Positions 767-30,167 of a DNA stretch of 41,932 bases are shown piece after piece. Below the pieces are notes generated by a model. It was not told the DNA's origin. It saw only the letters and a list, made by a program, of their open reading frames with translations, and ran no database searches. This stretch comes from Kiritimatiellia bacterium (GTDB lineage Bacteria; Verrucomicrobiota; Kiritimatiellia; RFP12; UBA1067): positions 1 through 41,932 of the forward strand of contig JAFUEM010000016.1 of the NCBI GenBank assembly GCA_017463935.1, read 5' to 3'. Each line of letters opens with the position of its first letter. Position 1 is the first letter of the stretch. A program made the position numbers and the translations under genes.

Positions 767-779
767 CGCGGGCGGCGCG

Positions 780-1913: not shown

Positions 1914-1922
1914 TGTGCATAT

Positions 1923-11772: not shown

Positions 11773-11798
11773 GTAGGGCGCGATGTCCTCATCGCGCC
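11773..11798 (+). repeat. GTAG-type REP-like palindrome
   Basis: GTAG (11773-11776) immediately followed by a perfect 9-bp stem, GGCGCGATG-TCCT-CATCGCGCC. Confidence 0.6.
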
Positions 11799-12027: not shown

Positions 12028-12678
12028 ATGAAAACAGAAACAGACATAGGAACTGATGCTGCGTTTATCCGAAGGATGGACGCAATAGATCGCCACGACA
12101 TGGTTGTCCTTTTGAAGGATGGCAATGACGATGCGTGGCGTTATGTCCTTTTTCGAGCAGTAGTGCCTGTACTGCACCGCCCAATGTTGGCTAAAATCAA
12201 GTCGGATCGGCATCTTTCGGATTTGGATGTATTAGGGATGCTGTTTGAGCAACTTATCCAGAAAAACGATATAGACAACTATGCCTGCAAGTGTCCAATT
12301 ATCTATTGGATTCGCCCGTATGTGTTCAAGGTGGTGATGGAGTACTGCAAGAAAAACGATGCTCCTGTGTCAGACGAGGACTTCCTTAGCGTCTTAAAGG
12401 ACGAAGCAACGCCAATACCGAACACCGAAATGTTCGAGGAGGCGAGAATGTGTTTCAACCGATTGTGGAAAGAAGATCAATTGAAAGCGAGAGTTCATTA
12501 TCTGAAGACGGTAAGCGAGATGTCGTCACGCGACATCATGCGATTGCTTCATATTTCATCAGAGGCAAATGTCAATCAGTTATTCTCTCGTGCTTGCAGA
12601 TTAATGCGTTCATACAGGGATGAATTACGACAGATGCCGGCAGAACAAGGGAAGGAGGTTCTGTATGCGCTGTCCTGA
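12028..12678 (+). CDS. Divergent ECF-type sigma-70-like factor
   Basis: About 216 aa. LLKDGNDDAWRYV (ECF region 1.2/2-like) and region-4-like HTH ARVHYLKTVSEMSSRDIMRLLHISSEANVNQLFSRA. Overlaps a zinc-finger anti-sigma-like gene. Confidence 0.6.
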   Translation: MKTETDIGTDAAFIRRMDAIDRHDMVVLLKDGNDDAWRYVLFRAVVPVLHRPMLAKIKSDRHLSDLDVLGMLFEQLIQKNDIDNYACKCPIIYWIRPYVFKVVMEYCKKNDAPVSDEDFLSVLKDEATPIPNTEMFEEARMCFNRLWKEDQLKARVHYLKTVSEMSSRDIMRLLHISSEANVNQLFSRACRLMRSYRDELRQMPAEQGKEVLYALS

Positions 12679-14125
12679 CATAGAGGAGTTGATACAATTC
12701 GCCCGGCAGCAAGCATCAGAACGTGATGCTGCCATTGTCGATCATATTGCGGTGTGCGAAAAGTGCCGCCATGAACTGCGAATCATAAACGAAACGCTGG
12801 CGGCAGATGATTGGATGATGCCAGATGGATATGATGATGTCGGAAGCGTTATCCCCAAATGTCGTGACGATGTGCGGCGGTACATTAAAATCGCCTCGAA
12901 AGTAACGGCGGATCGTTGGGGCAAAATGACGATTGCGCCCGGAGACCGTATGATTGTTGATCCGGTGACGAAAGAATGTGTGCCGGCGACCAAGGAGAAT
13001 GTAGAATTGTTCAAGTGCAATGGGATGAGCCTTTACATCAATCCTGACACTGATATGCAGTCCAATCTGAATGTCATGCGAAATTGCACGAGAGGATTCG
13101 GTACCGCACTTGGAATGAACATGGAGGCGCTTAAGGGTGCGGCAATCCCAGATTACAATCTGCCGTGGTGGGTAAAGCTCGTGCCGTCGCCGCTGCAAGT
13201 TAGTTTCCGAAATTGTCGAGAAATCCCAGTGCGACAAAGCGATTTTATAGAGCATCTTGGACGGCGAGGTGTCATACCCTCATCTGATGACATTCGCCAT
13301 GATGTTTGGGAAGACATCAAAAATTCAAATCTCTTCCGGGTATATGAACTTCGAGGATGGGGCGTAGTTTTCCATGTCTATTCAATCTTCGTTACGCACA
13401 TTGCTGTTGAAAAACACTGTGGCATAACAAAGTTGCTCATAAAACCAGCAGGAGATAAAGTCTATAAAGCGGTGGCGGACTTTGTAAAGGCATGGAAAGG
13501 GCATTTGGAGAAACCTAATTGTAAGTGCCTGTCCATAGGGGCATTCGGTGGATGGGATAAAATGAATGTCGTAGAATTGCCTGACAGTGTTCAGGTGTTG
13601 TCGTCGCCGAACAATGATGGTTCAGGAACATGGACGGTAAGACACAATTCGCTTGAACACATGCGCCCAATTTATCGGACGCTTGTCTATCGCCTTTATC
13701 CTGAATCTTGGGCGACTTGGCACGACAGAATCTGTGAAGTCCTTAAGCATGACTCTTTCGAATGCAGCATGACAGTGGCTCGCATGGCAGACATTTCCAA
13801 AGTGCCGCAATATTGTGTTGCGGAGATTTTCGAGGATTTGCGGAAAAGTGACAAAAGATGGCGTTCGGTGAAGAACAAGGTTACAGGCGAATTGGCGCTT
13901 GCGCCTGCCAACGGGAGTTCGGATGCCGGTTCTTTTGTGTCATTGCAAAGCAAGTGGCCGTGGCTTATGCTGGATGGGTCGTTGCTTGTCCTCCAGACGT
14001 TATTGATACAAAGCATTTGCAGGGAAATAAAACTGTGGAATGTTTTGGGTGCCTCAACGGTGTTTTTTGTCTTGATAGTATTTCTCGTTCTAAAAAACAA
14101 TATGCAAAGGAAAATCAAGGAATAA
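12665..14125 (+). CDS. Membrane protein with N-terminal ZAS (zf-HC2) zinc finger, putative winged helix and two C-terminal TM helices
   Basis: SD GGAGG, then MRCP...HIAVCEKC (Cx..Hx3Cx2C). wH-like segment about 13718-13910. Hydrophobic WPWLMLDGSLLVLQTLLI and LWNVLGASTVFFVLIVFLVL. Confidence 0.65.
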   Translation: MRCPDIEELIQFARQQASERDAAIVDHIAVCEKCRHELRIINETLAADDWMMPDGYDDVGSVIPKCRDDVRRYIKIASKVTADRWGKMTIAPGDRMIVDPVTKECVPATKENVELFKCNGMSLYINPDTDMQSNLNVMRNCTRGFGTALGMNMEALKGAAIPDYNLPWWVKLVPSPLQVSFRNCREIPVRQSDFIEHLGRRGVIPSSDDIRHDVWEDIKNSNLFRVYELRGWGVVFHVYSIFVTHIAVEKHCGITKLLIKPAGDKVYKAVADFVKAWKGHLEKPNCKCLSIGAFGGWDKMNVVELPDSVQVLSSPNNDGSGTWTVRHNSLEHMRPIYRTLVYRLYPESWATWHDRICEVLKHDSFECSMTVARMADISKVPQYCVAEIFEDLRKSDKRWRSVKNKVTGELALAPANGSSDAGSFVSLQSKWPWLMLDGSLLVLQTLLIQSICREIKLWNVLGASTVFFVLIVFLVLKNNMQRKIKE

Positions 14126-14143
14126 ACGGAAAGAGGTGCAGAA

Positions 14144-14725
14144 ATGGCGCTAAACGACGTTCTAAATGAAGTTGCAAAGCAACTTGGACTGAGAGACACG
14201 CGGATAGACACGCTGCGTAGAAAGCAAGCGGAACTTTCCGAATCCATACGAGACAACCATGACAGATTGGAGGCGCTGAAGAAACGCGTTGACGATCTTG
14301 ATTCTCGGCTCATCAAGAAAAAGCACGAGTATGATGCTGCAGGCCCCGGAAGGAAAAGGATTATAAAGGAAGAGATCAAGTTGCTCTTTGCGCAACAGGA
14401 TCGAATCACGGAGCCTGTGTCAGCCATTGCAGACCGCATACGGCTTGATGAGCTTGTAAAAGACAAGATAGACATTCTCATATTTGCCGAAGAGAATCCT
14501 TCGCGTACGGAGGAGATTGATGAGATGACGCTTGACATGAAGGAATGGCTTGACGAGCAGAAGGTCCAGTCCAAGGCTTCTGCGGAATTGGGCGACGCTT
14601 CGTATTCTCATCAAGAGGACGAAGCAGAACTCGACAGTCGCCTAAATGCGATAGACGGAGTGGATGAAACGGCTAAGGCATCTCACACCGATCCTATTGA
14701 CGAGCGAATCGCTCAATTGGGATAA
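14144..14725 (+). CDS. ESCRT-III/Snf7/PspA-superfamily-like coiled-coil protein
   Basis: All-helical with a basic N-half and acidic C-half. EEIDEMTLDMKEWLDEQ...EDEAELDSRLNAI resembles Snf7 helices 3-5. C-terminal DPIDERIAQLG is MIM1-like. Confidence 0.55.
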   Translation: MALNDVLNEVAKQLGLRDTRIDTLRRKQAELSESIRDNHDRLEALKKRVDDLDSRLIKKKHEYDAAGPGRKRIIKEEIKLLFAQQDRITEPVSAIADRIRLDELVKDKIDILIFAEENPSRTEEIDEMTLDMKEWLDEQKVQSKASAELGDASYSHQEDEAELDSRLNAIDGVDETAKASHTDPIDERIAQLG

Positions 14726-14765
14726 TCTGATTTACTGGTAACAACCTAAAGAAAGGAATCAAAAA

Positions 14766-15425
14766 ATGGGTATTGCTGATCTGTTCAAGTCCTCCAAGGA
14801 AATTGAACGCGAAAAGAACCGCGCTCGCCGTAGGGCGTTGCGCGATGTTGAACGCGCTTCTGACGTCGTCAAGGATCGCATTGCGACCTTGAAAAAGGAA
14901 CGCGATGCTGCATGGACACAGGCCCGTGAGTATCTACGCGATGGGCAGAAGTCGGCTGCTCAAAGATGCCTTCAGTCCGTACAGGCGAACGAACTGATGA
15001 TGGGCAAGCTCGAACGCAAGAGTTGGGTGTTCAGCCAGTTGGCGACAAAGATGGAAATGGCGAAGACCGATCAGGAGTTTGCCGCCGCTCTTGGCAATCT
15101 GAACACTACGCTCGAAATTGACCCCGACAAGGTTGCTGATGTGCTTGGTGACGTTGACGGTACGCTTTCAGAGCAGGGTGATATCGACAAGATATGGGAG
15201 AAGGAATACGGGAAGGAAATGAATGGACTTTCCCAATCCGATGCCATTCCGTCGGTAGAGGAGATGATGGCTAACCTTGAGAAAGAGGTTGTCGCCGATG
15301 TCACGGGCGGAAAGTCGGTGGCGGGGAAGGTCTTGTCAGCCGGAAGGGATGCCGTGGGTGGAATTGCCGAGGCTATAGGTGAGGGGCGCCGCAGGCTTAA
15401 GGCTCTGATGGACGGAAAGAAATAA
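14766..15425 (+). CDS. ESCRT-III (Snf7/Vps2/Vps24-like) protein
   Basis: MGIADLF N-terminal amphipathic start. RRALRDVER...GQKSAAQRCLQ resembles Vps2-type RALERTQRE...GQVAAAK. IDPDKVADVLGDV (helix 3/4), SVEEMMANLEKEV (helix 5), terminal RRRLKAL. Confidence 0.75.
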   Translation: MGIADLFKSSKEIEREKNRARRRALRDVERASDVVKDRIATLKKERDAAWTQAREYLRDGQKSAAQRCLQSVQANELMMGKLERKSWVFSQLATKMEMAKTDQEFAAALGNLNTTLEIDPDKVADVLGDVDGTLSEQGDIDKIWEKEYGKEMNGLSQSDAIPSVEEMMANLEKEVVADVTGGKSVAGKVLSAGRDAVGGIAEAIGEGRRRLKALMDGKK

Positions 15426-15449
15426 CCCTATTCCTTGGGAGGTAAGCGC

Positions 15450-16643
15450 ATGAGTAGTTTCAATGCGGACAAGAAGCGGGAACATGAGGCGTTGGCGGAA
15501 AAGGCGCTTGCGGCAGGAGACTACGCAAAGGCATTCTTCCATACGGCGCAAGCGGCAGAGTTCACGTTCAACCTCGCAGACCAGAGCGATGGTGATGTGG
15601 CCAGGGCTTATCTTGAAGACGCAAATGAATTGGTGAACATTGCAGCTTCGTTTAAGGAAAAGGCCGCTAAGTCTGGTGCCCGAGTGAATAAAGAAGAGTC
15701 GGGAGGTGCCGAGGTTGATGCGTCTGCAAAAGGTAAGTGGACTGTCACATCTGTCGGCGACATCCTTTTGGATGATGTAAAGGGTCTGACCGAGGCAAAG
15801 GCCGTTGTAATGGATGCATTGATTAATCCCGTTAACCATCCCGACATCTACAAGACACTTAAGGTCAAGCCGGGCACGGGACTCTTATTGTATGGCCCTC
15901 CCGGAACAGGCAAGACTATGTTTGCAAAGGCTATCGCCAATGAGATGAAGACAACGTTCATGCATGTGAAGCTGAACGAACTCAAGAGCAAATATGTAGG
16001 AGAGACGGAGCAGAACATAGCGGAGATGTTCCGTGAGGCCAGGTCCTACAAGAAATGCGTTCTGTTCCTCGATGAATGCGAATCCATGTTGCGCAAGCGC
16101 GGCAATCAAAAGGTCTGCATGGTTGAACAGTTCCTTGTCGAACTTGACGGTTTCAAGAAAGACGATGGCAATCAACTGTTTGTCCTTCTCGCCACAAACA
16201 GGCCTTGGATGCTCGACAGCGCCATTACCCGAAGCGGACGCATCAGCACGGCTGTATATGTTGGGTTGCCAGAAAAGGAGACAAGGCGGCTGATTATCGA
16301 TTCTGCACTCAAGGACGTGCCGCTTTCGCCAGATGTGGATCTTGACAAACTGTCCGACTTGACTGAGGGCTTCAGTGGAGCGGAAATCAGTCACAAGGAG
16401 AATGGCGGTGGCGTATGCGACGATGCTCGGAAGTTTGCGGCAAGAAGATGGATCGAAAGGCGGAAAAGTCAGGCGGAAGGTTCTGAAGAATGGGCAAAGA
16501 TCGAACCAGTTACATGGGCTGATTTTGACCGCGCGTTGAAAACGGTAGTTCCAACATCGAAACGTGATGCAGAAATTATACAGAAGAATCTTGCGTTTCG
16601 TGATTCGGGTGGGAATGTAAGTGACGACTCGGACTCTGATTGA
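15450..16643 (+). CDS. Single-ring AAA+ ATPase with N-terminal MIT-like domain (Vps4/CdvC-like)
   Basis: SD GGAGG. MIT-like AGDYAKAFFHTAQAAEF...ELVNIAASFKEK. DDVKGLTEAK, Walker A GPPGTGKT, pore loop SKYVGE, Walker B LFLDE, ATNRPWMLDSAI, C-terminal VTWADFDRALKTVVPT. Confidence 0.85.
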   Translation: MSSFNADKKREHEALAEKALAAGDYAKAFFHTAQAAEFTFNLADQSDGDVARAYLEDANELVNIAASFKEKAAKSGARVNKEESGGAEVDASAKGKWTVTSVGDILLDDVKGLTEAKAVVMDALINPVNHPDIYKTLKVKPGTGLLLYGPPGTGKTMFAKAIANEMKTTFMHVKLNELKSKYVGETEQNIAEMFREARSYKKCVLFLDECESMLRKRGNQKVCMVEQFLVELDGFKKDDGNQLFVLLATNRPWMLDSAITRSGRISTAVYVGLPEKETRRLIIDSALKDVPLSPDVDLDKLSDLTEGFSGAEISHKENGGGVCDDARKFAARRWIERRKSQAEGSEEWAKIEPVTWADFDRALKTVVPTSKRDAEIIQKNLAFRDSGGNVSDDSDSD

Positions 16644-16669
16644 GATTTTAACATGAAAGGATCTTGAAT

Positions 16670-17584
16670 ATGGAAGAACGTTTCATAGGCAATATGTTGG
16701 GACTATCATTTATGAAGTGGTGGTTCCTGCTGATTCCAAAGGTAGGCATGACGTTGTTCGTCGGCTATGTTTGCTACATGGGTTGGACGAATCTTGGGCC
16801 ACACAAGCCCATTCCGGATGTCGCCAGAATGAAAGCCGCCGACCATGCTGTGGATAAAATCGTTGATTCCATACAGCATAACCGAGGAGGGATGCGAAGC
16901 GCGGCGCTTTGTCATTTCGCCAACGACACGACGGACTACTTTTCGCGGAAACTTCGTGAGCGTATAGAGCAGTCGAACATCCTCGATCTGTCTGACATTG
17001 ACTTCTCCGAGAAGTTGCGTACTGTTTTGAATCTTCGCAACAAAGGTGCAACATCTGCTGACGAGGCTCGGTCAGCAACAAAAAGAGAAAATGTTGACTG
17101 TGTTTTATGGGGTAGTCTTGACAGATTCGAGTCTATAAAAGGCGGGGCAACGCTCACGGGTGAGTGGCAATTAGTAGATAAGAATACAGGCGTTGTCGTT
17201 TGCGGTGGACAAATTCATGAGGGAGCGGGATCGTCAAATTTTGTAGAAGCAATTTCGACGTTGGGGCAGTCTGCCGACGATGTCGAAATTGCCGCATCAG
17301 TCGTTCCGTGGTATATGAGACTTTTGGGTTTTGTTCTTCTTGTTCTGTTGTTGCCAATCGTTACGATATCGTTCATCAGGACAATGGTTGCGAAGCGCTC
17401 AAACAAGGTCAACGCATTTATGCTAGGTGTATACACGGTAATCGACATGATTCTTGCCTTTTTCATGGTCGGAGGAACCTTTTGTTCGTTTGCGCCGGTA
17501 GCAGTATTTCTTGGTGCATCAATGCTCGCCTTCCTCTACAATGTGTCGCTAATGTCATTTGCATTGCGTCTGGAAACGGAATAA
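16670..17584 (+). CDS. Membrane protein: N-terminal TM, CsgG/LpoB-like extracytoplasmic domain, three C-terminal TMs
   Basis: Hydrophobic stretches at both ends. ALCHFANDT...VDCVLWGSL...WQLVDKNTGVVV pattern typical of the CsgG/LpoB/TolB-N fold. Confidence 0.55.
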   Translation: MEERFIGNMLGLSFMKWWFLLIPKVGMTLFVGYVCYMGWTNLGPHKPIPDVARMKAADHAVDKIVDSIQHNRGGMRSAALCHFANDTTDYFSRKLRERIEQSNILDLSDIDFSEKLRTVLNLRNKGATSADEARSATKRENVDCVLWGSLDRFESIKGGATLTGEWQLVDKNTGVVVCGGQIHEGAGSSNFVEAISTLGQSADDVEIAASVVPWYMRLLGFVLLVLLLPIVTISFIRTMVAKRSNKVNAFMLGVYTVIDMILAFFMVGGTFCSFAPVAVFLGASMLAFLYNVSLMSFALRLETE

Positions 17585-17598
17585 TCAAGGAGAGCGAC

Positions 17599-17910
17599 AT
17601 GGTTTTGGCAGAGCTAATCTGGCTTGTTCTTGCGACAGCAGGAGCTGTATGCGGCGGAGGGTGGCCGTTTTTGCTCTTTGCCGTCAACATTGGTGTGTTG
17701 CTTCTGTTCGGTTGCGACAAGCGAGCTGCTATAAAACGTCTGCCTCGAATTCCAGAAAAGGAACTTTTGTTTTGGACGGCGTTGGGAGGGTCTGCCGGTG
17801 CTATGATAGGGATCCTGCTCTTTAAGCACAAAAGCTCCAAATGGTCGATGACAGGCTGGGTTGTAATCCTGTTTGTATTTCATTGCGCATTGCTTGCATA
17901 CCTTGCATAG
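17599..17910 (+). CDS. DUF1294 family membrane protein
   Basis: SD AAGGAG. FGCDKRAA...RIPEKELLFWTALGGSAGAMIGILLFKHKSSK matches the DUF1294 consensus. Confidence 0.85.
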   Translation: MVLAELIWLVLATAGAVCGGGWPFLLFAVNIGVLLLFGCDKRAAIKRLPRIPEKELLFWTALGGSAGAMIGILLFKHKSSKWSMTGWVVILFVFHCALLAYLA

Positions 17911-17923
17911 AAAGGAGAGCGTC

Positions 17924-19717
17924 ATGTCTGAAGTATTGATAAAGCGGTTACAAGATGGAGATAAAAAGTTATTGAAACGTCTTCTTGATTCGCAGCGTGA
18001 ACTGCATGGGTTTTATTCTGTCAAAGCATTGTCTAGTGGCGCGGAAATTCAAAAAGTGTGGACGATGGATAAGGCCAAAGATGCTTTAAGTCGAAATAGG
18101 TTGTATCAGGTTTTATCAACCGAATTTGTTTGCGAGTATGTAGAACGTAATTGGGAAGATTGCGATGTGTCAATACGGTTGCGGTTGCAAATATATCCTG
18201 AAGGCGAAGGGTTTGCCAGATGGCTTTTGTGCAATCGTGATTCGTGGAACGCTGATGCCACAATGATATTTGCGCCAGCGCTGGAAGCTGCATTGCAAAC
18301 TGATGCCCAGTATGGATTGTCATCTTATGTCCGTTCGTGTCGGCATAAGACCAAACTTGAGCGACTGAGAGAAATGGGAGCAGATGCGTGGCCATGGCAA
18401 GGTACTGAATTCTTACGCGCCAAGTGGCTTGGAGTCGTTGATGTAGAAGAGGTGCGTGTCACTTCGCACGAACCGATTAAGCGGCCTATTGTCGTTTGTG
18501 AAGGTGCAATTCTGAACGGACAATATAAGCTTATCCGAAAACTAGGACAAGGTGGAATGGGCGAGGTATGGTTGTCTGAAGACATCTATTGGGAGAAGGA
18601 CGGAGAAGAGAAGGAGAAATTTGCCATCAAGGTTCTTTTGCCGACTCTCGACAGGGATGTGCGCGAACGGATAAAGCATGAAGCGGCCATGCAGAAGAAA
18701 CTGAAGCATGATAATATTGCCTGCATCCGCAATTGCCATATAGATGAGGGCAATTCGTTTCTAGTCATAGACTATATAGACGGTCTCACGTTGTCAGATT
18801 ATCTTGAAAAGCGGGGAGGTTGCCTTTCTCCGGAGAAAGCGAAGAAAATTCTTCTACCAATAGCAAAGGCCATAGATTTCGCACATGAAAAGGGAGTCGT
18901 TCACCGTGATATTAAGCCAGACAACATTATGGTTGAGACGGGGGATGATGGAGTGGAAACGCCGTATATTCTTGATTTTGGACTTGCAAGACGATCATCC
19001 GTATCCCGCAGGGTATCAGTCTGTGGAACCGAACCTTACATGCCGCGTGAGCTATTACTGGAAGATGATGATGTCCTTAATTCGGCCGAAGTGCTACGCA
19101 AGATAGATGTTTATAGTTTTGCCGTAACAGCGTACCAGTGCTTAACGGGCAATCTACCTTTTATAAACAGAAAAGAGATTCTTGATTTAAGCATACAACC
19201 AGTGCCATTAGGTGACGAAGTGATATATGGCAGGAGTATCATGCAGGGTTTGAGCAAGGATCCAAATCTCCGTCCTAAAAGGTGCGTGGAACTATTGAAT
19301 GCACCTCAACGCAAGCCGCAACCGCCACCACCTGATGAAGTTGTTCTTTCGTGGGAAGAAATCGTGCGCGATTACCAAGATATGCTTAAGGCTTGCGATA
19401 TGTTTGACAAATGGCAGATGATTGAGAGAGCTCATGTCGTAAGCCGCAATTTACGAACGGGTGACGTGCGGATTCTTTCGGTAAGCGCGTTCCTTGACTT
19501 TTTGACGAAGATGCCGACGTTTGTCTCTTTGGTTAAAACAAAAAACAAGGCTAGAACGCCACGTTACAATCTAGAATGCTGGTTTACGGCGGTAAAACGA
19601 TGGAACGACCAAAGCAAAAGGGATGAGCTTCGGTCAGAGTTTGGAGAAGCGAAATTCGCCGTGTTGGACGCTATATACAACAGCATCACTAAAACAAATG
19701 AGGAGGAATGGACATGA
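17924..19717 (+). CDS. Hanks-type Ser/Thr protein kinase with N-terminal SPFH-like domain and unknown C-terminal domain
   Basis: LGQGGMGEVW, AIKVL, HRDIKPDNI, DFGLA, GTEPYMPRE, DVYSFAV. No TM seen. The N-terminal 190 aa are homologous to the N-terminus of 25169..27715. Confidence 0.9.
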   Translation: MSEVLIKRLQDGDKKLLKRLLDSQRELHGFYSVKALSSGAEIQKVWTMDKAKDALSRNRLYQVLSTEFVCEYVERNWEDCDVSIRLRLQIYPEGEGFARWLLCNRDSWNADATMIFAPALEAALQTDAQYGLSSYVRSCRHKTKLERLREMGADAWPWQGTEFLRAKWLGVVDVEEVRVTSHEPIKRPIVVCEGAILNGQYKLIRKLGQGGMGEVWLSEDIYWEKDGEEKEKFAIKVLLPTLDRDVRERIKHEAAMQKKLKHDNIACIRNCHIDEGNSFLVIDYIDGLTLSDYLEKRGGCLSPEKAKKILLPIAKAIDFAHEKGVVHRDIKPDNIMVETGDDGVETPYILDFGLARRSSVSRRVSVCGTEPYMPRELLLEDDDVLNSAEVLRKIDVYSFAVTAYQCLTGNLPFINRKEILDLSIQPVPLGDEVIYGRSIMQGLSKDPNLRPKRCVELLNAPQRKPQPPPPDEVVLSWEEIVRDYQDMLKACDMFDKWQMIERAHVVSRNLRTGDVRILSVSAFLDFLTKMPTFVSLVKTKNKARTPRYNLECWFTAVKRWNDQSKRDELRSEFGEAKFAVLDAIYNSITKTNEEEWT

Positions 19718-22958: not shown

Positions 22959-22968
22959 GAATAAATTT

Positions 22969-25029
22969 ATGAAAACAATGAGAAAAGTGGCGATAGTTGG
23001 GGTTGAAGGCAGCGGTAAGACCGTCTTGATGTCTGTCATGGGCGACAAGTACGAATCGCCAGACATCAATGGTGTATTCCTCCAGCCAATGAACCGTGAA
23101 ACCTATTCGTACTACACGAAGGAGACGGCAAAGTTGCGAGACGGCAAGTGGCCGCTTGCAACGGAAAGCATTGTCTTGGAATTGGATTGGATGCTGATGA
23201 GGCAATCGAGTTCTGATGCGCATCAAGAAAAACTTGGACAGATTTCTTTTCTCGATTTTGGCGGTGAGGTCTATAGGATCGCTTTTGCCGACAAATCGCA
23301 GCAAGAATTGAATGCCATAGAGGAACAGAGGCGAAACGCGGCAGAGCGTCTTAGGGCGCATGTGCAGGATGCGGATGTGTTGATTGTCCTCATCAACCTA
23401 AGTGATATCATTAATGGTAAGCAAGGGGAAGATCGGACAATTGAGATGAATTGGCTTTCGCAGGCGATATTATCATACGCTTACGAAAAAGCGGGAAAAA
23501 CCAATGTCGCGCTTGTGTTCACGCAGACGGACTTGTACGCCCCCACGATAGAAAAATGCGGAGGATTGCGCGGTACTCTTGCTGCTTGCATGCGTACTGT
23601 CAATTCAAGATATGGGAACCGACTTTCGCTCTTTTCTGTTTCTGCGGTGAAGTCGGTTCCTTCTCGCGATGGCACTGGCGCTCAAGTTCCAATACCCGAT
23701 TTTAAGCCGCAGGGTCTTGAACAGTTAATTGGATGGATAGTGGAGGGCATAGACGAAGAGCGTAATAGACGTGAAGCGGATTGCGCTGCTGTAGCTAGGG
23801 ATGAAGAAAAGAGGCGTAAAAGATGGAAAATTGCCGCTGGGCTGATAGGACTATTAGGGATTTTAGGGTTTGGATCATGGATTGGCTACAATGCCAACAC
23901 AGACTTAAAGAACTTCATTGATGGACACTTGATGGCTTGGGGTTGGATGCACCAAGAGGCACCTGCCACATCTGAATCGCGTCCTGTTGTTGTGTCAGCA
24001 AAGCCTGTTGAAATATCGACAAATGTTGTGCCGGTGCAGACAAAGCCGCCGACCGTAACTCCAGACCCTCCGAAACCCAAACCAAGGTGGATAGTGGGAG
24101 CAAGTAATCCGAACAACCCTAATCTTATTGCTGGTGAGAGCCGCGACACTTGGGTCGCAAACAGACCGGGTTATGTTTGGGTCAGAGGAACGGACAGGGA
24201 CGAGTGGAAACAGGGGTTGCGCCATCCTGAAAACTCTAAACTTGTGTCTGATTGGAAAGAGGGCACGTGGAAGTCAACGCAGGCTGGGTATGTTTGGACA
24301 GGAGGCAATCAGACCGAATGGCGTGAAAATTTGAAACATCCCGATTGGCCGCATGTCCTTTCAAGCCCCGAAGAGAACAATTGGCACGCAGAGGAAGGAT
24401 ACAAGTGGGTTGACCCAGATGCGAAAAATGATTTCTCTGTGGCATGGAACCCAGGCAAGATTATAAATGGAAGGAAAACAGCATCGTCTCCTGGTCAATG
24501 GCTGAAAAAGTGTTCTGCGTGTAATGGGCGCGGAAAAAAGGACTGTTGGAAATGTGATGGTGACGGTAGGATCAATTGCACTAGTTGTAGTGGTTCTGGT
24601 AGGGTTGAGACAACGGAATCTGAAAAATGCTGGATGTGTAATGGGCGGGGACGGATAACCGAAAGTTGTTCCAACTCTGATTGCATAATCTGGCCGAATC
24701 CTTTAAATCCCCACTATGGCAAACATTGTGAGATATGCTCACTTTGCGAAGGGAATGGCGGTCGCTTTGTTCCTGGTCCATGGGGGCCGGTAGCCGTGAA
24801 CTGTACGGCTTGTGTTGGAGGAGTGCGAAGATTATGTCCTACATGTGGCGGTGATAACAAGGTGATTGTTGATTGCAATAATTGCGACAATGGCTATCGC
24901 ACACGACAAACTACGAAGAAATGCTCTGACTGTTCTGGGCGTGGTACGGTTATCTGCCCACGTTCGGAATGCCACAGCGGAAAAGTCTCATGTTCCTCAT
25001 GCAACGGTGATGGTTGGATTGCTGAGTGA
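22969..25029 (+). CDS. TRAFAC-class GTPase fused to TM, Trp-rich repeats and multiple CxxCxGxG zinc fingers
   Basis: G1 GVEGSGKT, WPLAT, DFGGE, TQTD, SAV; paralog of the previous gene. TM about 23824-23889. Seven perfect CxxCxGxG motifs from 24511. Confidence 0.85.
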   Translation: MKTMRKVAIVGVEGSGKTVLMSVMGDKYESPDINGVFLQPMNRETYSYYTKETAKLRDGKWPLATESIVLELDWMLMRQSSSDAHQEKLGQISFLDFGGEVYRIAFADKSQQELNAIEEQRRNAAERLRAHVQDADVLIVLINLSDIINGKQGEDRTIEMNWLSQAILSYAYEKAGKTNVALVFTQTDLYAPTIEKCGGLRGTLAACMRTVNSRYGNRLSLFSVSAVKSVPSRDGTGAQVPIPDFKPQGLEQLIGWIVEGIDEERNRREADCAAVARDEEKRRKRWKIAAGLIGLLGILGFGSWIGYNANTDLKNFIDGHLMAWGWMHQEAPATSESRPVVVSAKPVEISTNVVPVQTKPPTVTPDPPKPKPRWIVGASNPNNPNLIAGESRDTWVANRPGYVWVRGTDRDEWKQGLRHPENSKLVSDWKEGTWKSTQAGYVWTGGNQTEWRENLKHPDWPHVLSSPEENNWHAEEGYKWVDPDAKNDFSVAWNPGKIINGRKTASSPGQWLKKCSACNGRGKKDCWKCDGDGRINCTSCSGSGRVETTESEKCWMCNGRGRITESCSNSDCIIWPNPLNPHYGKHCEICSLCEGNGGRFVPGPWGPVAVNCTACVGGVRRLCPTCGGDNKVIVDCNNCDNGYRTRQTTKKCSDCSGRGTVICPRSECHSGKVSCSSCNGDGWIAE

Positions 25030-25049
25030 CAATTTTAACAGGAGATTTG

Positions 25050-25121
25050 ATGAGCAATGTTGCTATAGTGGGAGTTGAGCAAAGCGGCAAGACCGCGCTC
25101 ATGACTTCATGGGGATGCTAG
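25050..25121 (+). pseudogene. Remnant of a third GTPase paralog (G1 motif only)
   Basis: SD AGGAG, then MSNVAIVGVEQSGKTALMTSWGC-stop. Matches the N-termini MKKVAIVGVKGSGKTVLMAVMG and MRKVAIVGVEGSGKTVLMSVMG. Absent from the ORF track. Confidence 0.85.
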
Positions 25122-25168
25122 TGCAAAGAAATGAAAAGTCACTTGGAGCTAATTCGGGAGATATTGCC

Positions 25169-27715
25169 ATGTCGTCAAATATCGAAACTGTTTTGATAAA
25201 GCGAATCAGGTCTTTGTCGGAGATTACACCTGAGACAAAAGACTTCGTCTATACGTTGGATTCAAAGGATGGCGTGTGGCGAGTAAGGCCATCAACAATC
25301 GGAAGGAAAGACATAAGAGACGGCAGGCTGTTCTACATTGCAAACTTCGAGTTTGATGCGCCAATCTCCTTCGAGAAGGTTTGGCACCATGACAGGCCGA
25401 GCGGGATAAATGCCACAGCAGTCTTCAGGTTCAGGCTGAGGATTGGCGCAAGCGGGGATGGTGGCTTCGAACAATGGCTTGCCGCCAACCAAAGTCGGGA
25501 TGAAGTGACAATTGGCGATTTAGTTGCAGATGTCCATTCGGCGCTTGAAGCATATTTCAAACACGGAATAGATGCAAATTCTCTTGATTTAATACTGACG
25601 CATCGTTTTGAGGCCTTTATTGATTCTAAGAAAGATGCAGATAGACTTCTGCCGAAGTGGCTTGACTTAATCGAGATAAAGGACTTGTATGCCACGCCGC
25701 TGCCGACGGAAGAGGAGATCAAGCTCGAAGAAGAGAAACGGCATCGCGCCGAGCTGGCGAAACGGTTGCGCGACATTGATGATCAATTTAATGTTCAAAT
25801 TGCCCTGAACAAACTTGATGACGCAGAAAAGGAGTATAAGAACCGTTGCGAACTGAGGGAGAAGTTGCATGAGCAGACTCTGAAGGCGATTGAAATTGCT
25901 CGAAGGAAAGCAGAACTTGAACTTGAAGAGCAACAGACGACGACGGAAATAGAAAAAGAGCGTCTTAAAAAGGCTGTGGCAGAGACAGAAAAAGTTTATG
26001 CAGAAATCAAGAGAGAAAATAAGAGGCTTGAGCAAGAGATAAAAGAAAGCAATGCGCGGATTGTTTTAAATTCGTGGTGGTTCAAGTTGCTACATAGTAC
26101 GTATTCGCATTTTGTCTTGGGGGTTGTTCTATTTGGCGTGGTTGTTGCGTCTGTTGCATATATATTTAAATCACAGGGACGAGAAGAAATGTTACGCAAA
26201 TGCGATGCCCTAGGCGAGAAAGTTCATGAGTTGAAATGTCTCGGATATTCAGAGGTCCGTTTCGGATTTACGAATGAAATAGCCAAAGTCCGCAGGCTTT
26301 GCGATTCACAGCGAATTGTCTTTCATGCGGTTGAGGCTAAACGACTTATGTCATATGCTGATAATGCAATAGAGCAACTGGAAAGGGCTTCGGGAGAAAT
26401 CGATCCAAGAGAAAGTGACTATGTGGCTGATTTTGCTTATATGCGAGATGCTTTGTCTCGTTTGATTGAGATTGTTCCAGATAGAATTGCGAACAAAGAA
26501 AAGAGTAAGCGATTGCGCTTAGATATTGATAATCTACTCAAGGGGATGACTTATTGCAAGGGACAAAAGCAAATATCTGTTCTGACCTCAGATAAGTATG
26601 AACATATCAAATCCAGATACCAAGAGATTATGGAATTCAATTATTATGCAGATTTGGCAATACGGTTGAATCGGTATAGCGAAGATGGGATGCCTATGGA
26701 GCTAATTCAACAGAAGCAAACAATCTTGAGGAGGTTGCAAGATTTTCGACGTGATGCCGACTATTTCAAGGATGTGTTAAGGGGTGAGAATCTTTGTGAT
26801 ACATTGCTTGCTTATCCTGTTTTTATGATTGAAATGAATGGTTTGGATCGACTGGTTGGTGATATGCAAAAATCAGGATGCCCAAATACAAATGCGGTGG
26901 TGAGGGCAAAGGATTTATTGATGAAGAGTGCTCAGAAGTATGTAGTTGAAGGCGGAAGAAAGTTCAATTGGGATAATCTTATTGCAGAGGCAGGCAAGAC
27001 AAACGCAACATATGCACTGAGTCTCGAAGTGTTTAAGGATGAGATAGGGAAGCTTCAACATCAATTGATTTCATTGTATGTAAAAAAGAATTGGAGTGGG
27101 CTTCAACAATTGTTGAATGCGAATCGAGATAACATCGGTCGTGACATTTTGAACCGGTGGGAGGGAATTGCGCGCATCGTCGAAGTGGACTGCGAAACTA
27201 TCAAAATGATAGGCGAGATCAAAAAGAGCGAGCCTGCATTTTGCAGGGCGTTTTGGGACTTTTACAATAATCAGTCTTCAATAAAATTGTCACGATCAGC
27301 AAAAGATCGATTTGGATCAGGATTGTTGGACATATTGAAATCATATCCAAAAGAGTCTGAGATAAACGCGAGCAATGCCTATTTGCGAAGCCTTGACTGT
27401 AGGGGGATTGATGAGCAGAGAATGTATTTTAATAAGGGACTTTTACTTGAAATGCTTTATTTGATCGATAAAACGGCGCTCAAGGAATCTGATGTTAGGG
27501 CGGCATATGAAAAGGCACCATCAATAGGGGAGAGTTGGTATAGATTGTCAAAAATTGCTAAATGGGGGTTGTATGGCAACTCGTCGACGCTGGACGGCAA
27601 GACTGTCAAAGATGTTTTGTTCCGGCTGAGGCAGTCTAGCCGTAATTGTATGTGGCTTGATGAAAGGAAACATAAATATTGGGATGGTGTTATGACAAGA
27701 GAACTTGGGATATAA
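25169..27715 (+). CDS. Membrane protein: SPFH/band-7-like N-terminal domain, long coiled coil, TM, large helical C-terminal region
   Basis: SD GGAG before ATG 25169. E/K/R-rich coiled coil (EEEIKLEEEKRHRAEL...EQEIKESNAR). TM FVLGVVLFGVVVASVAYIF. The SPFH call is pattern-based. Confidence 0.6.
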   Translation: MSSNIETVLIKRIRSLSEITPETKDFVYTLDSKDGVWRVRPSTIGRKDIRDGRLFYIANFEFDAPISFEKVWHHDRPSGINATAVFRFRLRIGASGDGGFEQWLAANQSRDEVTIGDLVADVHSALEAYFKHGIDANSLDLILTHRFEAFIDSKKDADRLLPKWLDLIEIKDLYATPLPTEEEIKLEEEKRHRAELAKRLRDIDDQFNVQIALNKLDDAEKEYKNRCELREKLHEQTLKAIEIARRKAELELEEQQTTTEIEKERLKKAVAETEKVYAEIKRENKRLEQEIKESNARIVLNSWWFKLLHSTYSHFVLGVVLFGVVVASVAYIFKSQGREEMLRKCDALGEKVHELKCLGYSEVRFGFTNEIAKVRRLCDSQRIVFHAVEAKRLMSYADNAIEQLERASGEIDPRESDYVADFAYMRDALSRLIEIVPDRIANKEKSKRLRLDIDNLLKGMTYCKGQKQISVLTSDKYEHIKSRYQEIMEFNYYADLAIRLNRYSEDGMPMELIQQKQTILRRLQDFRRDADYFKDVLRGENLCDTLLAYPVFMIEMNGLDRLVGDMQKSGCPNTNAVVRAKDLLMKSAQKYVVEGGRKFNWDNLIAEAGKTNATYALSLEVFKDEIGKLQHQLISLYVKKNWSGLQQLLNANRDNIGRDILNRWEGIARIVEVDCETIKMIGEIKKSEPAFCRAFWDFYNNQSSIKLSRSAKDRFGSGLLDILKSYPKESEINASNAYLRSLDCRGIDEQRMYFNKGLLLEMLYLIDKTALKESDVRAAYEKAPSIGESWYRLSKIAKWGLYGNSSTLDGKTVKDVLFRLRQSSRNCMWLDERKHKYWDGVMTRELGI

Positions 27716-27758
27716 CCAATATCATAAACCTTAAATTTAACCGAAGGAAACAAACAGT

Positions 27759-30167
27759 ATGAAAGCAAAATTACTAATAACAACACTGGCGGTTGCCTCA
27801 TTGCCAATCATGGGCTACGCCGGAAGTCTTAGTCTTGACAAGACGACAGCGACACAGCAGGCAAAGGTTGCTTATGAATCCGGAAACTATGGTTTGGCAT
27901 TCAAGCTTGCGCAACAAGGTGATATGGACGATGGGCGGAATTTGTATTATCTTGCGGATATGTATTATAACGGAAGAGGTTGCTCGGTTGACAGGCAATT
28001 GGGACTGGAGCTAATGCAAAAAAGTGCAGAAAAGGGGGACCCTTTCGCCAATGCGTGGATCGGTCATTTTATTGATATACCTAAAGGCGATTACAAGTCC
28101 GCGGAGGGGCATCTGCGGATTGCTGTTGACCAAAAAAATTCTTTGGGCTACTTTGCGCTTGGCCGTATGTACGAGAAGGGTCAAATAAATGGAACCCCAG
28201 ATAAAGGAGAGGCGCTTAGATATTATCGTAAGGCCGTCACCGAAAGTGACAATCCAATGCCATGGATCTTGACAGCAGTTGGCGAGAGGCTTGCTGATAA
28301 TGGAGAGAACTCGTCCGCACTAGCGCTTTTCCGGCGGGCAGCAGAAAAGAAATTCCCATCTGCTCTGTTTATTCTTGGGCGAGCATACAAGTATGAATGG
28401 TACGGTCTGGTAAAGAATTTTGGAGAGGCGGAAAGATACTTAAAGGAAGCTATAGCTTGTGCCGAGCAATTAACAGCTGAGAGTACGGAATTGTCTGCAA
28501 TAATGGAATTGATTGGCCTTTATGGTGAACGAATGTCGTCTGGCGATTGTTCGGATTCAATTAGAGGGGCCATATATAAATATCATGAACGCCTATCTAG
28601 TTTAGACGCCAAGCATGAAGGCGATAAAGAGACTTTGGGTAGAGCATATTTATCACTTGGATTAATATATTGTGCGTATCTGGAAGACTATAAGCGTGGC
28701 TTTGAAGCATACACTGCGGCAGCAAATCTAGACAATGGTGATGCATGGGCTGATTTGGGGATTATGTATGAAAACGGTGAGTATGTTGCGAAGTCAGAGG
28801 AAGAAGCCAGAAAATGCTATGAGAGGGGGGCGAGTCTTAAGAGCGCTTGCTGTATGTGGAATCTTGCTGGAATTTACGATAAAGAAGGGGATAAAAACAA
28901 GGCGTTAGCTTTTCTTGTTGAGGCGCACTATCTCGATAAAGACGATGTCTTGATATTGGGCACATTGTTGAAAGTGCTGCAACGTGAAGGCAGGATACAG
29001 GAATTTAAACATATAGTTAGTCGAATTGATGTAGAAGCAACAGTTAGGAAGGCCATAGAGTCGGATGTGGATTGGTTGAAATTCAATTTTGCAACGTATC
29101 TAGATAATGGGTTGTTCCCGCTTGATAAAGGGAAATCCAGTGCAATGATGGCAGAGCTTTCTAAGAAAAGTGATTGTTGTGCAAGCGCACATATGGCTCA
29201 TGAAGCGATACTCAAGGGAGACAACAAAAAAGCTTTCGACTTGCTGACTATGGCTTATAAAGAAAATCCAAACTGTCCGAATGTGCTCAAGTTGTTGGGA
29301 GTAGGATGCCTTAATAGGCGTTGGCAAACGCCTAGGGATGGAATTGCATATCTTGCAAAGGCTGCTACACAAAAATCTCAATCTGCATGTATTACACTTG
29401 CCTGTTGCTATGCGTTTCCTCCAAAAGAACTTAATCTTGGCATCGTGAAGGATTATAAAAAGGCGAGGTTGTATGCGGAAATGGCCGCACAAGAAGAGGA
29501 ATTAAAGCCATATGCCGATGTGCTTATTGCATGGATTGATATTGGCGAGTCTGATATGATGCCGCAGTCTGAAAAATGCAAGAAAGCATTCAATGTAATC
29601 AAGAAGAACGCAGATGATGGCCGGGTTATGGCTTTTGGGCTCCTGGCGGCTTGTTACCAAAATGGTTGGGGGACATCTAAGAATCGTGCGAAAGCAGATG
29701 AGTGGTATGAGAAGGCAAGAAATTATCAAGGCCCTTCATTTATGATGGAAGGCTATAAAAGAAGCTTAGAGAAAATAGACGCTGGGAAAAAGAAATTTGA
29801 CAATTCTGAGAATGGATCGGATGTTGAAACGAGCAATAAGAGTGGCGACAAAGGAAAGTCGGTTGAAGCCTCGGTAGGTTATCCTCACGAATGGCCGATG
29901 CCCTTGGGGATGTTTCGTGGTGTGTTTGAGATTTGTGTTTCGCCAATTGATGCGTTTAGGGGGCTTGTTACAAAGCCATTTACCCATTTGTTCGGAGCTG
30001 TTGATCTAATTGAACGGGTTGGCGCTGGTGTCGCAGACATTTGTACTTTTGGTTGGGTTGGCAACAAACTGTATGGAATAAGTCGAGACTTTGAGATTTG
30101 GCCTTGGGGTTGTAATTGCGATGGTTGTAAGGTGTATTGGCGCGAAAAGAATATTGGTGGAAGATGA
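27759..30167 (+). CDS. Secreted SEL1-like (TPR) repeat protein
   Basis: Signal peptide. Repeats such as YYLADMYYNGRGCSVDRQLGLELMQKSAEKG, LGRMYEKG, LGIMYENGEYVAKSEEEARKCYERGA, LAACYQNGWGTSKNRAKADEWYEKA. Confidence 0.9.
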   Translation: MKAKLLITTLAVASLPIMGYAGSLSLDKTTATQQAKVAYESGNYGLAFKLAQQGDMDDGRNLYYLADMYYNGRGCSVDRQLGLELMQKSAEKGDPFANAWIGHFIDIPKGDYKSAEGHLRIAVDQKNSLGYFALGRMYEKGQINGTPDKGEALRYYRKAVTESDNPMPWILTAVGERLADNGENSSALALFRRAAEKKFPSALFILGRAYKYEWYGLVKNFGEAERYLKEAIACAEQLTAESTELSAIMELIGLYGERMSSGDCSDSIRGAIYKYHERLSSLDAKHEGDKETLGRAYLSLGLIYCAYLEDYKRGFEAYTAAANLDNGDAWADLGIMYENGEYVAKSEEEARKCYERGASLKSACCMWNLAGIYDKEGDKNKALAFLVEAHYLDKDDVLILGTLLKVLQREGRIQEFKHIVSRIDVEATVRKAIESDVDWLKFNFATYLDNGLFPLDKGKSSAMMAELSKKSDCCASAHMAHEAILKGDNKKAFDLLTMAYKENPNCPNVLKLLGVGCLNRRWQTPRDGIAYLAKAATQKSQSACITLACCYAFPPKELNLGIVKDYKKARLYAEMAAQEEELKPYADVLIAWIDIGESDMMPQSEKCKKAFNVIKKNADDGRVMAFGLLAACYQNGWGTSKNRAKADEWYEKARNYQGPSFMMEGYKRSLEKIDAGKKKFDNSENGSDVETSNKSGDKGKSVEASVGYPHEWPMPLGMFRGVFEICVSPIDAFRGLVTKPFTHLFGAVDLIERVGAGVADICTFGWVGNKLYGISRDFEIWPWGCNCDGCKVYWREKNIGGR

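Follow-up and report, generated by a model that had tools for sequence, protein, structure and literature searches.

In this report, we describe a string of 13 genes (g1–g13, positions 11992–30167, every one on the + strand) within a stretch of 41,932 nucleotides, hereafter the window, from contig JAFUEM010000016.1 of a Kiritimatiellia bacterium. The first-pass annotation of the window regarded this 18-kb string as one system in which ESCRT-like genes are joined to GTPases, a kinase, and SPFH-like membrane proteins. Comparison with related loci indicates that the string is not one fixed system. It appears to be composed of a constant core, which encodes a Snf7-family ESCRT-III-like protein (g4), a coiled-coil partner (g3), and an AAA+ ATPase (g5), and of an exchangeable cassette of signaling and membrane proteins. 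We propose that the two parts together make up a mobile system in which sensors would trigger the remodeling of a membrane during conflict and defense or after damage to the envelope, and we regard the chances of this proposal being correct as about even.

Related loci (given L-numbers below) were collected from the genomic contexts of homologs of the ATPase, from Snf7-like matches in 401 genomes of the phylum, and from 46 species-level GTDB genomes. They were annotated with home-made profiles derived from the window locus and with our own open reading frame (ORF) calls. Neighborhoods were counted using a 10-kb same-strand rule, and loci flanked by 5 kb or more of sequence on each side, 27 in all, were taken as complete. 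The core (g3, g4, and the AAA+ ATPase) was found in 46 species-level genomes of several phyla. The hosts belong to the Lentisphaeria, the Kiritimatiellia, other Verrucomicrobiota, the Planctomycetota, the Hydrogenedentota, the Chloroflexota (Anaerolineales), and the Desulfobacterota (Desulfobacteraceae). The ATPase gene was present in 25 of the 27 complete loci and g3 in 24. The corresponding counts for the other components were 15 for a kinase, 12 for g6, 9 for an FGE-sulfatase domain, 6 for the middle domain of g2, 5 for a caspase, 4 for a domain that we designate domain X, and 2 for g9 together with the GTPase pair. The conserved core is g3, g4, and g5, often accompanied by g6, a DUF1294 gene, and a sigma-like/ZAS gene pair.

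The protein encoded by g4 (14766–15425, +) matches the Snf7 family (PF03357) with 29.9 bits, above the cut-off of 27.3. Within its own family, 19 of 22 members match Snf7 (best E 8.6e-11) and none of the 22 matches PspA. The family is a small separate clade; a search of 1.84 billion proteins at E ≤ 1e-3 gave 233 representative clusters. The charge of g4 is split between a basic N-terminal half and an acidic C-terminal half (+9/–10), and the same ESCRT-III-like split is found in g3 (+4/–18). Both ends of g4 are conserved, with MGxxDLFKS at the N-terminus and the amphipathic helix IGEGRRRLKALM at the C-terminus. The partner gene g3 (14144–14725, +) encodes a protein whose C-terminal tail, DPIDERIAQLG, is conserved in the short forms of the family. 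The tails of g4 and g3 both resemble the MIM1 pattern, (D/E)xxLxxRLxxL(K/R), and are thus candidate motifs for recruiting the ATPase. No Pfam match was found for g3, Snf7 included; alignment of g3 with the g4 family by hhalign gave a probability of 61% (E 8e-5) over 145 colinear columns. A second ESCRT-III-like subunit is therefore a possible identity for g3, and the earlier assignment of two ESCRT-III genes holds for g4 and is left as a possibility for its partner. Long forms of g3 (300–340 residues), found in L017–L023 and other distant loci, carry an N-terminal zinc-ribbon-like extension (CCICGxxLPNR) and are without the MIM-like tail.

The third core gene, g5 (15450–16643, +), encodes a single-domain classical AAA+ ATPase (PF00004, E 2e-37) with a helical N-domain of 75 residues that is kept in 39 of 46 related loci. 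The Walker A and B motifs, the pore loop KYVGE, sensor 1, and the RSGR motif are all intact, and the gene adjoins g4 in 25 of the 27 complete loci. The NCBIfam scores were 198 bits for CDC48, 176 for PAN, and 166 for CdvC, for which the cut-off is 650. The top PDB profile matches were to the D2 domain of p97/Cdc48, and no match to Vps4_C was found with Pfam. The label MIT-AAA, given to g5 previously, is correct in its AAA half. The MIT half was rejected: the Pfam MIT model matched none of 26 members at E ≤ 10, and the N-domain matched the MIT domain of VPS4B/SKD1 in the PDB only at E 0.46 and 1.9, matches that were gone with a wider profile. We therefore describe g5 as apparently Vps4-like in layout only and not as a clear Vps4 ortholog. 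Since g5 scores better with Cdc48 and PAN than with CdvC, the docking of the g3 and g4 tails to this ATPase is proposed purely by analogy.

The entire string lies within a low-GC genomic island of ~22 kb (~11600–33750; ~47% GC, compared with 63% for the genome). Across the region from ~11.6 to 33.75 kb, the GC content drops to 41–50% from the 63–67% of the flanks, and DNA homology to the related locus L012 begins at position 11688. The island is flanked by carbohydrate-active enzyme (CAZyme) genes upstream and by FtsW, ETF, and DnaE genes downstream. There is no tRNA gene within the window, and no att-like flanking direct repeats of at least 13 nt were found at the ends of the island. The Snf7-like gene is present in 15 of the 401 phylum genomes (~4%). 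Three genomes sampled from the same genus are without it, yet a 91% identical copy is found in a different family. Close copies of the locus occupy at least three chromosomal sites: after PurL-TopA-integrase in L012, between rpoD and rpsT in L074, and between CAZyme genes and ftsW in the window. On this sequence evidence, the locus is a chromosomal island that is spread by horizontal transfer.

The genes of the string are tightly packed. ATGA stop/start overlaps join g8 to g9 (19714–19717) and g9 to g10 (20790–20793), and g1 and g2 overlap by 14 nt (12665–12678), as read from the sequence of the junction. The remaining intergenic gaps from g2 to g13 are 10–79 nt, and the first long gap, of 732 nt, is found 3′ of g13. 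Shine-Dalgarno-like purine runs precede most of the starts of g2–g13, and scans for terminator and promoter consensus sequences inside the string gave no signal above shuffled controls. The first-pass annotation had described a co-oriented string of about 14 genes with gaps of 10–47 nt. The tight string was confirmed, with 13 genes and somewhat wider gaps, and the three overlaps listed above are the ones that had been proposed.

The exchange of the cassette is seen when the window is compared with L012. The core proteins of the two loci, together with g1, g2, and g6, are nearly the same (92, 87, 91, 96, 98, and 97% identity for g1 to g6, respectively). The identities in the tail are 36% for the kinase, 46% for g9, 59% for the first GTPase (N-domain only), and 77% for the second GTPase (g11). 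At the DNA level, the similarity is 89.6% over 11688–17915 and is fragmented beyond. The first GTPase of L012 ends in Sel1 repeats in place of the FKBP and FGE domains of its window counterpart, and both L012 and L028 have an extra intact GTPase gene 3′ of the counterpart of g11. In the window, only a relic of the 5′ end of this third GTPase gene is found (25050–25121, +), consisting of an ATG, 23 codons (MSNVAIVGVEQSGKTALMTSWGC), and a stop codon. The ribosome-binding site and P-loop of the relic are 90% identical to those of the intact genes in L012 and L028. The alignment of the DNA is conserved until ~25117 and then breaks, and the sequence of g12 starts there. The relic marks a recombination joint at which g12 replaced the rest of the third GTPase gene. 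In other relatives, g6 or the DUF1294 gene is followed by an X-DUF4384 protein, by a protein of 1400–1800 residues that combines domain X with Sel1, LysM, kinase, and vWA domains, or by a caspase-X fusion. Caspases, DUF4384 proteins, receptor kinases that carry an FGE-sulfatase domain, and LysM/vWA/Sel1 proteins make up the tails elsewhere.

The order sigma-like gene, ZAS gene, g3, g4, AAA+ ATPase, g6, DUF1294, X-kinase, g9, and GTPases is kept in L012, L028, L029, and L074, where the flanks are unrelated. The core is again combined with g9 and DO-GTPase2 genes in the distant loci L075, L076, L010, and L011. Homologs of g9 sampled at 39–63% identity (L074, L075, and L076) are all found in core-bearing loci, which contain two small helical proteins, the ATPase, a g6-like protein, kinases or caspases, and DO-GTPase2 genes. 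In the more distant subfamily of L010, L011, and L076, two small helical proteins and an AAA ATPase form a set that occurs twice in tandem, and these loci also have several caspases and pairs of g9 and DO-GTPase2 genes. Among the 401 phylum genomes, DO-GTPase2 was found in 15 and the Snf7-like protein in 15. Both were found in 3 genomes, where 0.56 would be expected by chance, and in all 3 the genes are physically adjacent. GTPases of this subfamily also occur in loci without a recognizable core, namely, L090 (g9 and a GTPase), L091 (a kinase-GTPase fusion), and L095–L097. Independent occurrence of the ESCRT-like and GTPase genes in other genomes had been named beforehand as an observation that would speak against a single system, and such independence is found in part, in these core-free loci and in the small overlap of 3 genomes. 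From the adjacency and the recurrence in distant loci, set against the core-free loci, we conclude that the combination is real and recurrent and that it is a lineage-specific elaboration of a modular system. What stands of the one-system claim is the presence together, in this lineage, of the ESCRT-like genes, the kinase, and the g9/GTPase genes; the near-universal part is limited to g3, g4, and the ATPase (24–25 of 27 loci). The neighborhood search that had been suggested as a check gave the same divided answer, with a gene order retained in four relatives and a GTPase/g9 module that is confined to 2 of the 27 complete loci and is found also apart from the core.

Two candidates for a membrane platform are encoded between g5 and the cassette. 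The product of g6 (16670–17584, +) is an inner-membrane protein with four transmembrane (TM) helices and a periplasmic domain of the LpoB/PelC/TolB-N/CsgG class, as assigned with AlphaFold2 and Foldseek. The model has a mean predicted local distance difference test (pLDDT) score of 78 and was obtained from a shallow alignment (11–15 sequences were used for this model and for that of g2, discussed below). The Foldseek matches were LpoB (4q6l, E 4.6e-6, target TM-score 0.65), PelC (4e-5), TolB-N (2e-3), and CsgG (7e-3). An N-terminal TM helix is followed by the LpoB-class domain and then by three more TM helices, and the positive-inside pattern of the loops places the folded domain in the periplasm. 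The small membrane protein g7 (17599–17910, +) belongs to DUF1294 (PF06961, E 2.4e-17), and its gene comes after g6 in L012, L029, L030, and L074 as well.

The cassette begins with g8 (17924–19717, +), which encodes a soluble Ser/Thr kinase (Pkinase, E 1e-39) with domain X at its N-terminus (residues 12–188). The kinase motifs FAIK, HRDIKPDN, and DFG are intact, and the enzyme looks active. Domain X is common to g8 and g12 and is found as well in 8 other loci, in the variable gene that comes first. Wherever there is an X-domain gene, it lies directly 3′ of g6 or of the DUF1294 gene, and in L003 and L037, where g6 is duplicated, each copy has its own X-domain gene after it. We infer that domain X may be an adaptor that docks the variable proteins onto the g6 platform. 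A word-indexed search with domain X retrieved only 5 close kinases and is thus a poor guide to the spread of the domain. The earlier SPFH-like label for this domain was not sustained: hhalign gave a probability of 0.5% against the Band_7 proteins of this and related genomes, and there was no Pfam match.

The product of g9 (19714–20793, +) is a GTPase-associated single-pass membrane protein with an N-domain of 180 residues, a Pro-rich linker, a TM helix, and two CxxCxGxG motifs. The family is small (46 clusters among 5.8 billion proteins), and its gene was always found immediately 5′ of a DO-GTPase2-type gene (L010, L011, L012, L028, L029, L074, L075, L076, and L090). The proposal that g9 is GAP1-N-like was abandoned, as its N-domain has no Pfam match even at E ≤ 5. 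The next gene, g10 (20790–22958, +), encodes a tail-anchored DO-GTPase2-type GTPase with FKBP and FGE-sulfatase domains, assigned from Pfam. It matches PF19993 (DO-GTPase2) with 26.6 bits by hmmscan and with 29.1 bits, above the cut-off, in a six-frame search. Its motifs are GVKGSGKT, DFAGE, and TQKD, and the TM helix is at residues 703–721. The FKBP region (residues 265–413; window 21603–22050) is closest to the peptidyl-prolyl isomerase domain of trigger factor (NCBIfam tig, E 2e-17) and is without the ribosome-binding and C-terminal domains of that protein. The paralogous single-pass GTPase g11 (22969–25029, +; DO-GTPase2, 20.3 bits, E 4.8e-4) has its TM helix at residues 288–306, preceded by 7 Lys/Arg residues, and an extracytoplasmic C-terminal region that is rich in Trp and in CxxCxGxG motifs. 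The two GTPases have the motif types GxxGxGKT, DxxGE (DFAGE and DFGGE), and TQxD in common.

The last two genes of the string are g12 (25169–27715, +; alternative start 25109) and g13 (27759–30167, +). The product of g12 is composed of domain X (residues 24–205 of the long ORF), a coiled coil, a TM helix (residues 328–346), and an extracytoplasmic helical region of 520 residues; no relative of its C-terminal part was found in the related loci searched. The product of g13 is a secreted Sel1-repeat protein (Sel1, E 1e-21) with an N-terminal signal-like sequence, which has no counterpart in the related loci searched and is lineage-specific. Most of the tail proteins are single-pass proteins in which a conserved cytoplasmic domain (X, the g9 N-domain, or the GTPase) is joined to a variable extracytoplasmic part. 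Apart from the revisions noted in this report, the gene labels of the first-pass annotation were upheld by the matches given here, namely, the ZAS/winged-helix TM protein for g2, the CsgG-like TM protein for g6, DUF1294 for g7, the kinase for g8, two GTPases and a relic for g10, g11, and 25050, and SEL1 for g13.

The string begins with a gene pair that may control its expression. g1 (11992–12678, +; its start is uncertain and was placed earlier at 12028) encodes a probable divergent sigma factor of the extracytoplasmic function (ECF) type. It has weak colinear matches to NCBIfam ECF sigma models (E 0.013–0.08) and no Pfam or PDB profile match, including for sigma-70 regions 2 and 4. The sigma identity therefore comes mainly from the translationally coupled ZAS neighbor, and the label sigma, given to g1 before, is retained as probable on the strength of this neighbor and of the weak ECF matches. 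The gene is kept 5′ of the ZAS gene in L003, L006, L007, L008, L012, and L074. The product of g2 (12665–14125, +) is a membrane-anchored anti-sigma-like protein composed of a ZAS motif, an alpha/beta domain of 280 residues, a winged helix, and a hairpin of two TM helices (residues 434–475). The N-terminal ZAS motif, HIAVCEKC (HxxxCxxC type), is conserved in relatives. The AlphaFold2 model (pLDDT 80) gave local winged-helix matches only with Foldseek, for example, to Zalpha (TM-score 0.80 over 67 columns), and the middle domain has no global PDB relative at E < 0.06. In L003 (6680–8686), L005 (2949–5363), L015 (17254–19242), and L024 (16412–18808), a papain-like Peptidase_C1 domain takes the place of ZAS as the fusion partner of this middle domain, and in L003 and L015 the ZAS motif is found on a separate protein of 218 residues. 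The fusions to Peptidase_C1 hint at proteolytic control of the anti-sigma factor.

The neighbors of the core in other genomes appear to be those typical of conflict systems. The associated kinases are often receptor-like, with a kinase domain, a TM helix, and an FGE-sulfatase domain, and there are often several per locus; multiple caspases are also found. Among 125 otherwise unannotated neighbors, we found 6 AAA_14-DUF4143 ATPases (PADLOC PDC-S01), 3 reverse transcriptases, 3 FHA proteins, 2 trypsins, and 3 genuine Band_7 proteins, counts that are given without a background rate. A diversity-generating retroelement (DGR) adjoins the ESCRT-like genes in L049 (2801–7027), a locus of a Victivallales metagenome-assembled genome (CAZKRK010000022.1). 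The DGR has a reverse transcriptase with a YMDD motif (3527–4726) and a template repeat (4724–4890). Its variable repeats lie at the 3′ ends of two kinase-TM-FGE-sulfatase genes directly upstream of g3 (9037) and g4 (9716), and adenines of the template account for 25 of the 26 mismatches in one repeat and for 20 of 26 in the other. Such hypermutated sensors argue for the recognition of changing ligands. The window itself is without a reverse transcriptase. In L075, a DUF4011/AAA_11/AAA_12/MTES_1575 helicase-nuclease gene (1–3630) flanks the locus, and an AAA_15/AAA_21 ATPase gene (14731–16845) lies between the GTPase genes. Both gene types are common in defense islands.

In the mechanism that we propose, g3 and g4 would form polymers at the inner membrane, on its cytoplasmic side, and the helical N-domain of g5 would grip their C-terminal amphipathic tails to remodel or disassemble the polymer. 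The LpoB-like protein g6 and the DUF1294 protein g7 would serve as a membrane platform or as a periplasmic input, and the sigma-like g1 with the membrane-tethered ZAS protein g2 would make the operon inducible. The exchangeable cassette would act at the same membrane and in this lineage would consist of the kinase g8, the receptor-like g12, g9, the two DO-GTPase2-type GTPases, and the secreted Sel1 protein. An envelope or extracellular cue would be detected by the variable domains, and phosphorylation and GTP switching would start or localize the assembly of the ESCRT-III-like polymer, so that the membrane is sealed, shed, or sacrificed. The sequences show the motifs and folds, the gene content with its synteny and variability, and the horizontal transfer; the polymerization, the docking of the tails to the ATPase, the order of the signaling steps, and the biological role are all predictions. 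A more specific form of the proposal is that the Planctomycetes–Verrucomicrobia–Chlamydiae (PVC) bacteria and a few other phyla exchange a mobile innate-immunity-like module, in which arrays of hypervariable receptors in the membrane, namely, receptor kinases (diversified by a DGR in one relative), switches of the DO-GTPase2 type, X-domain adaptors, and caspases, would sense phage or envelope attack and would trigger local scission, shedding, or sealing by the ESCRT-III-like polymer and its AAA+ ATPase as effector. Such a module would be a counterpart of eukaryotic ESCRT repair in pyroptosis and necroptosis. We consider this specific form unlikely, at perhaps one chance in five.

Several observations weigh against sensor-triggered remodeling in conflict or damage. 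The relatedness of g3 to g4 was only 61% probable, the N-domain of g5 has no convincing resemblance to MIT, g5 scores better with Cdc48 and PAN than with CdvC, and the sigma assignment of g1 depends on weak matches. The GTPase/g9 module is found in 2 of the 27 complete loci and in several metagenome loci, and also in core-free loci. The island sits amid housekeeping and CAZyme genes and outside any defense island. No relatives of g4 were found in phage, IMG/VR, or plasmid collections, so that the family has no direct tie to phages. A scan of g1–g6 and g8–g11 with PADLOC-DB v2 gave no system match, as had been expected beforehand, and only generic matches to IetA-type AAA and to PD-T4-6/mad6 kinase models.

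Three other explanations were considered. The locus could be an envelope-stress repair system of the Psp/Lia kind with no role in conflict, in which the sigma/anti-sigma pair senses damage, the polymer seals the membrane, the ATPase recycles the polymer, and the kinases and GTPases tune the response to the niche. PspA and Vipp1, two ESCRT-III superfamily members, do such work in bacteria (PMC8281802, PMC7619361), a sigma-like/ZAS pair is encoded within the locus itself, the periplasmic LpoB/PelC-like domain of g6 is suited to reporting on the envelope, and true Band_7 genes are found in 3 related loci, as in Psp neighborhoods (PMC11237479). A repair system of this kind, however, does not predict presence in only ~4% of the phylum genomes, absence from 3 genomes of the same genus, or arrival by horizontal transfer. 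It also leaves unexplained the caspase, papain, and reverse transcriptase neighbors, the receptors diversified by a DGR, and the cassette-like turnover of the tails between cores that are 96–98% identical. We regard it as an improbable explanation, although one that deserves to be kept in mind. It is still harder to favor a machine for vesicle budding or cargo sorting, in which the polymer and the ATPase would make the inner membrane bud outward, and the variable single-pass proteins (g9, g11, and g12), the Sel1 protein, and the LysM/vWA and caspase proteins of other loci would be cargo or effectors that reach competitors or a host in vesicles. Archaeal ESCRT systems do release vesicles (reviewed in PMC7619361), most of the tail proteins are single-pass with a variable extracytoplasmic part, and a common adaptor such as domain X would suit the recognition of cargo, but kinases and GTPases are switches and not the usual cargo, and g8 and g10 are entirely cytoplasmic. 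No toxin/immunity pairs were recognized in the Pfam and PADLOC scans of the window proteins, and a diderm envelope complicates the release of buds from the inner membrane. We judge the vesicle machine to be very unlikely.

The third explanation is that the island is a mosaic of independent modules, with g1–g7 as an ESCRT-like module, g8–g11 as a conflict module of kinase and DO-GTPases, and g12–g15 as cargo (g14 and g15 are described below). The GTPases are missing from the core in 25 of 27 loci, DO-GTPase2 and the Snf7-like protein occur together in 3 of the 27 genomes that hold either, and L090, L091, and L095–L097 have g9 with a GTPase, or a GTPase only, and no core. Moreover, the C-terminal part of g12 and the whole of g13, g14, and g15 have no counterparts elsewhere. 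What a mosaic does not account for is the continuity between the supposed modules. The gap between g7 and g8 is 13 nt with no terminator between them, and at least 5 loci whose flanks differ have retained the order of core, X-kinase, g9, and GTPases. This order is rebuilt in L010, L011, L075, and L076, in which either the identity of the ATPase domain is ~60% or little of the core can still be recognized. The 3 co-occurrences in the phylum sample are all adjacent (0.56 expected), and every X-domain gene is linked to g6. We therefore think it rather unlikely that the modules are independent, somewhat more so than for envelope repair, and prefer the two-part system of constant core and exchangeable sensors.

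No published description of this gene combination was found in the literature, in agreement with the statement of the first-pass annotation that it is undescribed. According to a 2025 review, bacteria appear to have no Vps4-like ATPase (PMC7619361), and no bacterial ESCRT components were found by Makarova et al. (2024; PMC11188069). Ravi et al. (2024) described Vps4-like AAA+ ATPases in Verrucomicrobia and Planctomycetes in a context where snf7 is replaced by a TPR-6TM gene, and a context of divergent bacterial Snf7/PspA proteins that uses a two-domain ATPase and ABC transporter genes (PMC11237479). The locus described here resembles these contexts in having an AAA+ ATPase of Vps4-like layout in the same phyla and a divergent bacterial Snf7 beside an AAA+ ATPase, but the set of g3, Snf7-like protein, single AAA, LpoB-like 4-TM protein, DUF1294, sigma/ZAS-winged-helix pair, and X cassette is not described there. 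The DO-GTPase/GAP1 systems of Kaur et al. (2020) include tubulin, HSP70, and kinase themes, with no mention of ESCRT, Snf7, or Vps4 (PMC7159879).

A close parallel to the core is the archaeal ESCRT system of CdvB and CdvC/Vps4, including its euryarchaeal clades (PMC11188069). In both, the AAA+ ATPase is of the single-ring kind, has a small helical domain at its N-terminus, and is encoded beside one or more Snf7-family genes. The Snf7-like proteins end in amphipathic tails, and winged-helix and membrane proteins are found in the same operon, with kinase or SPFH partners in some clades. Unlike the archaeal systems, the window system is bacterial and horizontally mobile, its ATPase is no CdvC equivalog (166 compared with 650 bits) and matches neither Pfam MIT nor Vps4_C, its Snf7-like family is a small separate clade (233 clusters), and its core is linked to a variable cassette of sensors as well as to a sigma/anti-sigma pair and an LpoB-like 4-TM protein. 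With PspA, Vipp1, and LiaH it has in common a polymer of the ESCRT-III superfamily (predicted here) at the inner membrane, its own control of transcription, and membrane partners. It differs from them in that g4 matches Snf7 and not PspA_IM30, a dedicated classical AAA+ ATPase adjoins, the system is rare and patchy, and kinases, caspases, and GTPases take the place of PspBC or LiaIF as partners. The cassette resembles the DO-GTPase/GAP1 ternary systems of the GAP1-N2 type (PMC7159879). The likenesses are two paralogous TRAFAC GTPases in a pair, which have DxxGE as their Walker B motif and match DO-GTPase2 in Pfam, a partner gene of their own that lies upstream or adjacent (to which g9 is analogous by position only), TM anchors, variable domains of the FGE-sulfatase (FGS) and Sel1 types, occurrence in planctomycetes and Verrucomicrobia, and a grammar of constant core and variable effector. 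In contrast to those systems, g9 has no GAP1-N, GAP1-M, or GAP1-C domain detectable with Pfam, none of the window genes has an FNIII/GASH component, the window GTPases are without N-terminal zinc ribbons, and here the GTPases are the variable part and the ESCRT-like core the constant part. The locus is best classed as a putative ESCRT-III-like polymer with an AAA+ partner within a conflict-system grammar, into which this lineage would have recruited switches of the DO-GTPase2 type.

Reviews place Snf7-type ESCRT-III with a dedicated disassembly ATPase in archaea and eukaryotes only (PMC7619361). In the ~46 species-level relatives described here, a bacterial Snf7-family protein is nearly always encoded beside a single-ring AAA+ ATPase, and the pairing is horizontally mobile. 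This core is linked to signaling parts of conflict systems, namely, kinases, caspases, DO-type GTPases, and FGE domains, which are diversified by a DGR in one relative. If the coupling is true, the locus would provide a tractable bacterial model for regulated ESCRT-III dynamics and would represent a new class of membrane-acting defense or damage-response system. The control of cytoskeleton-like assemblies by GTPases, which is the presumed theme of the DO-GTPase systems, would also be extended to an ESCRT-like polymer.

The genome of the window is a metagenome-assembled genome of 2.8 Mb that is 85% complete. A 5.3-kb contig (C178, 1–5329) was rejected as a second copy of the locus, since it is redundant and 99.98% identical to window 10490–15818. 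Reconstruction of the empty site was dropped because the flanks of the same-genus genomes have only 66–69% DNA identity. Downstream of the string, the island carries two further genes that we regard as cargo outside the conserved system, g14 (30900–31379, +), which encodes a 4-TM protein, and g15 (31354–33570, +), which encodes a lipoprotein with the lipobox LSGC and a weak YbjN-like region. No homologs of either were found in any related locus searched. At the left edge of the island (11183–11600), a short high-GC ORF remnant has a signal peptide and a GH10-like motif, after which the frame is lost. This remnant may be a glycoside hydrolase gene that was cut short by the insertion of the island.

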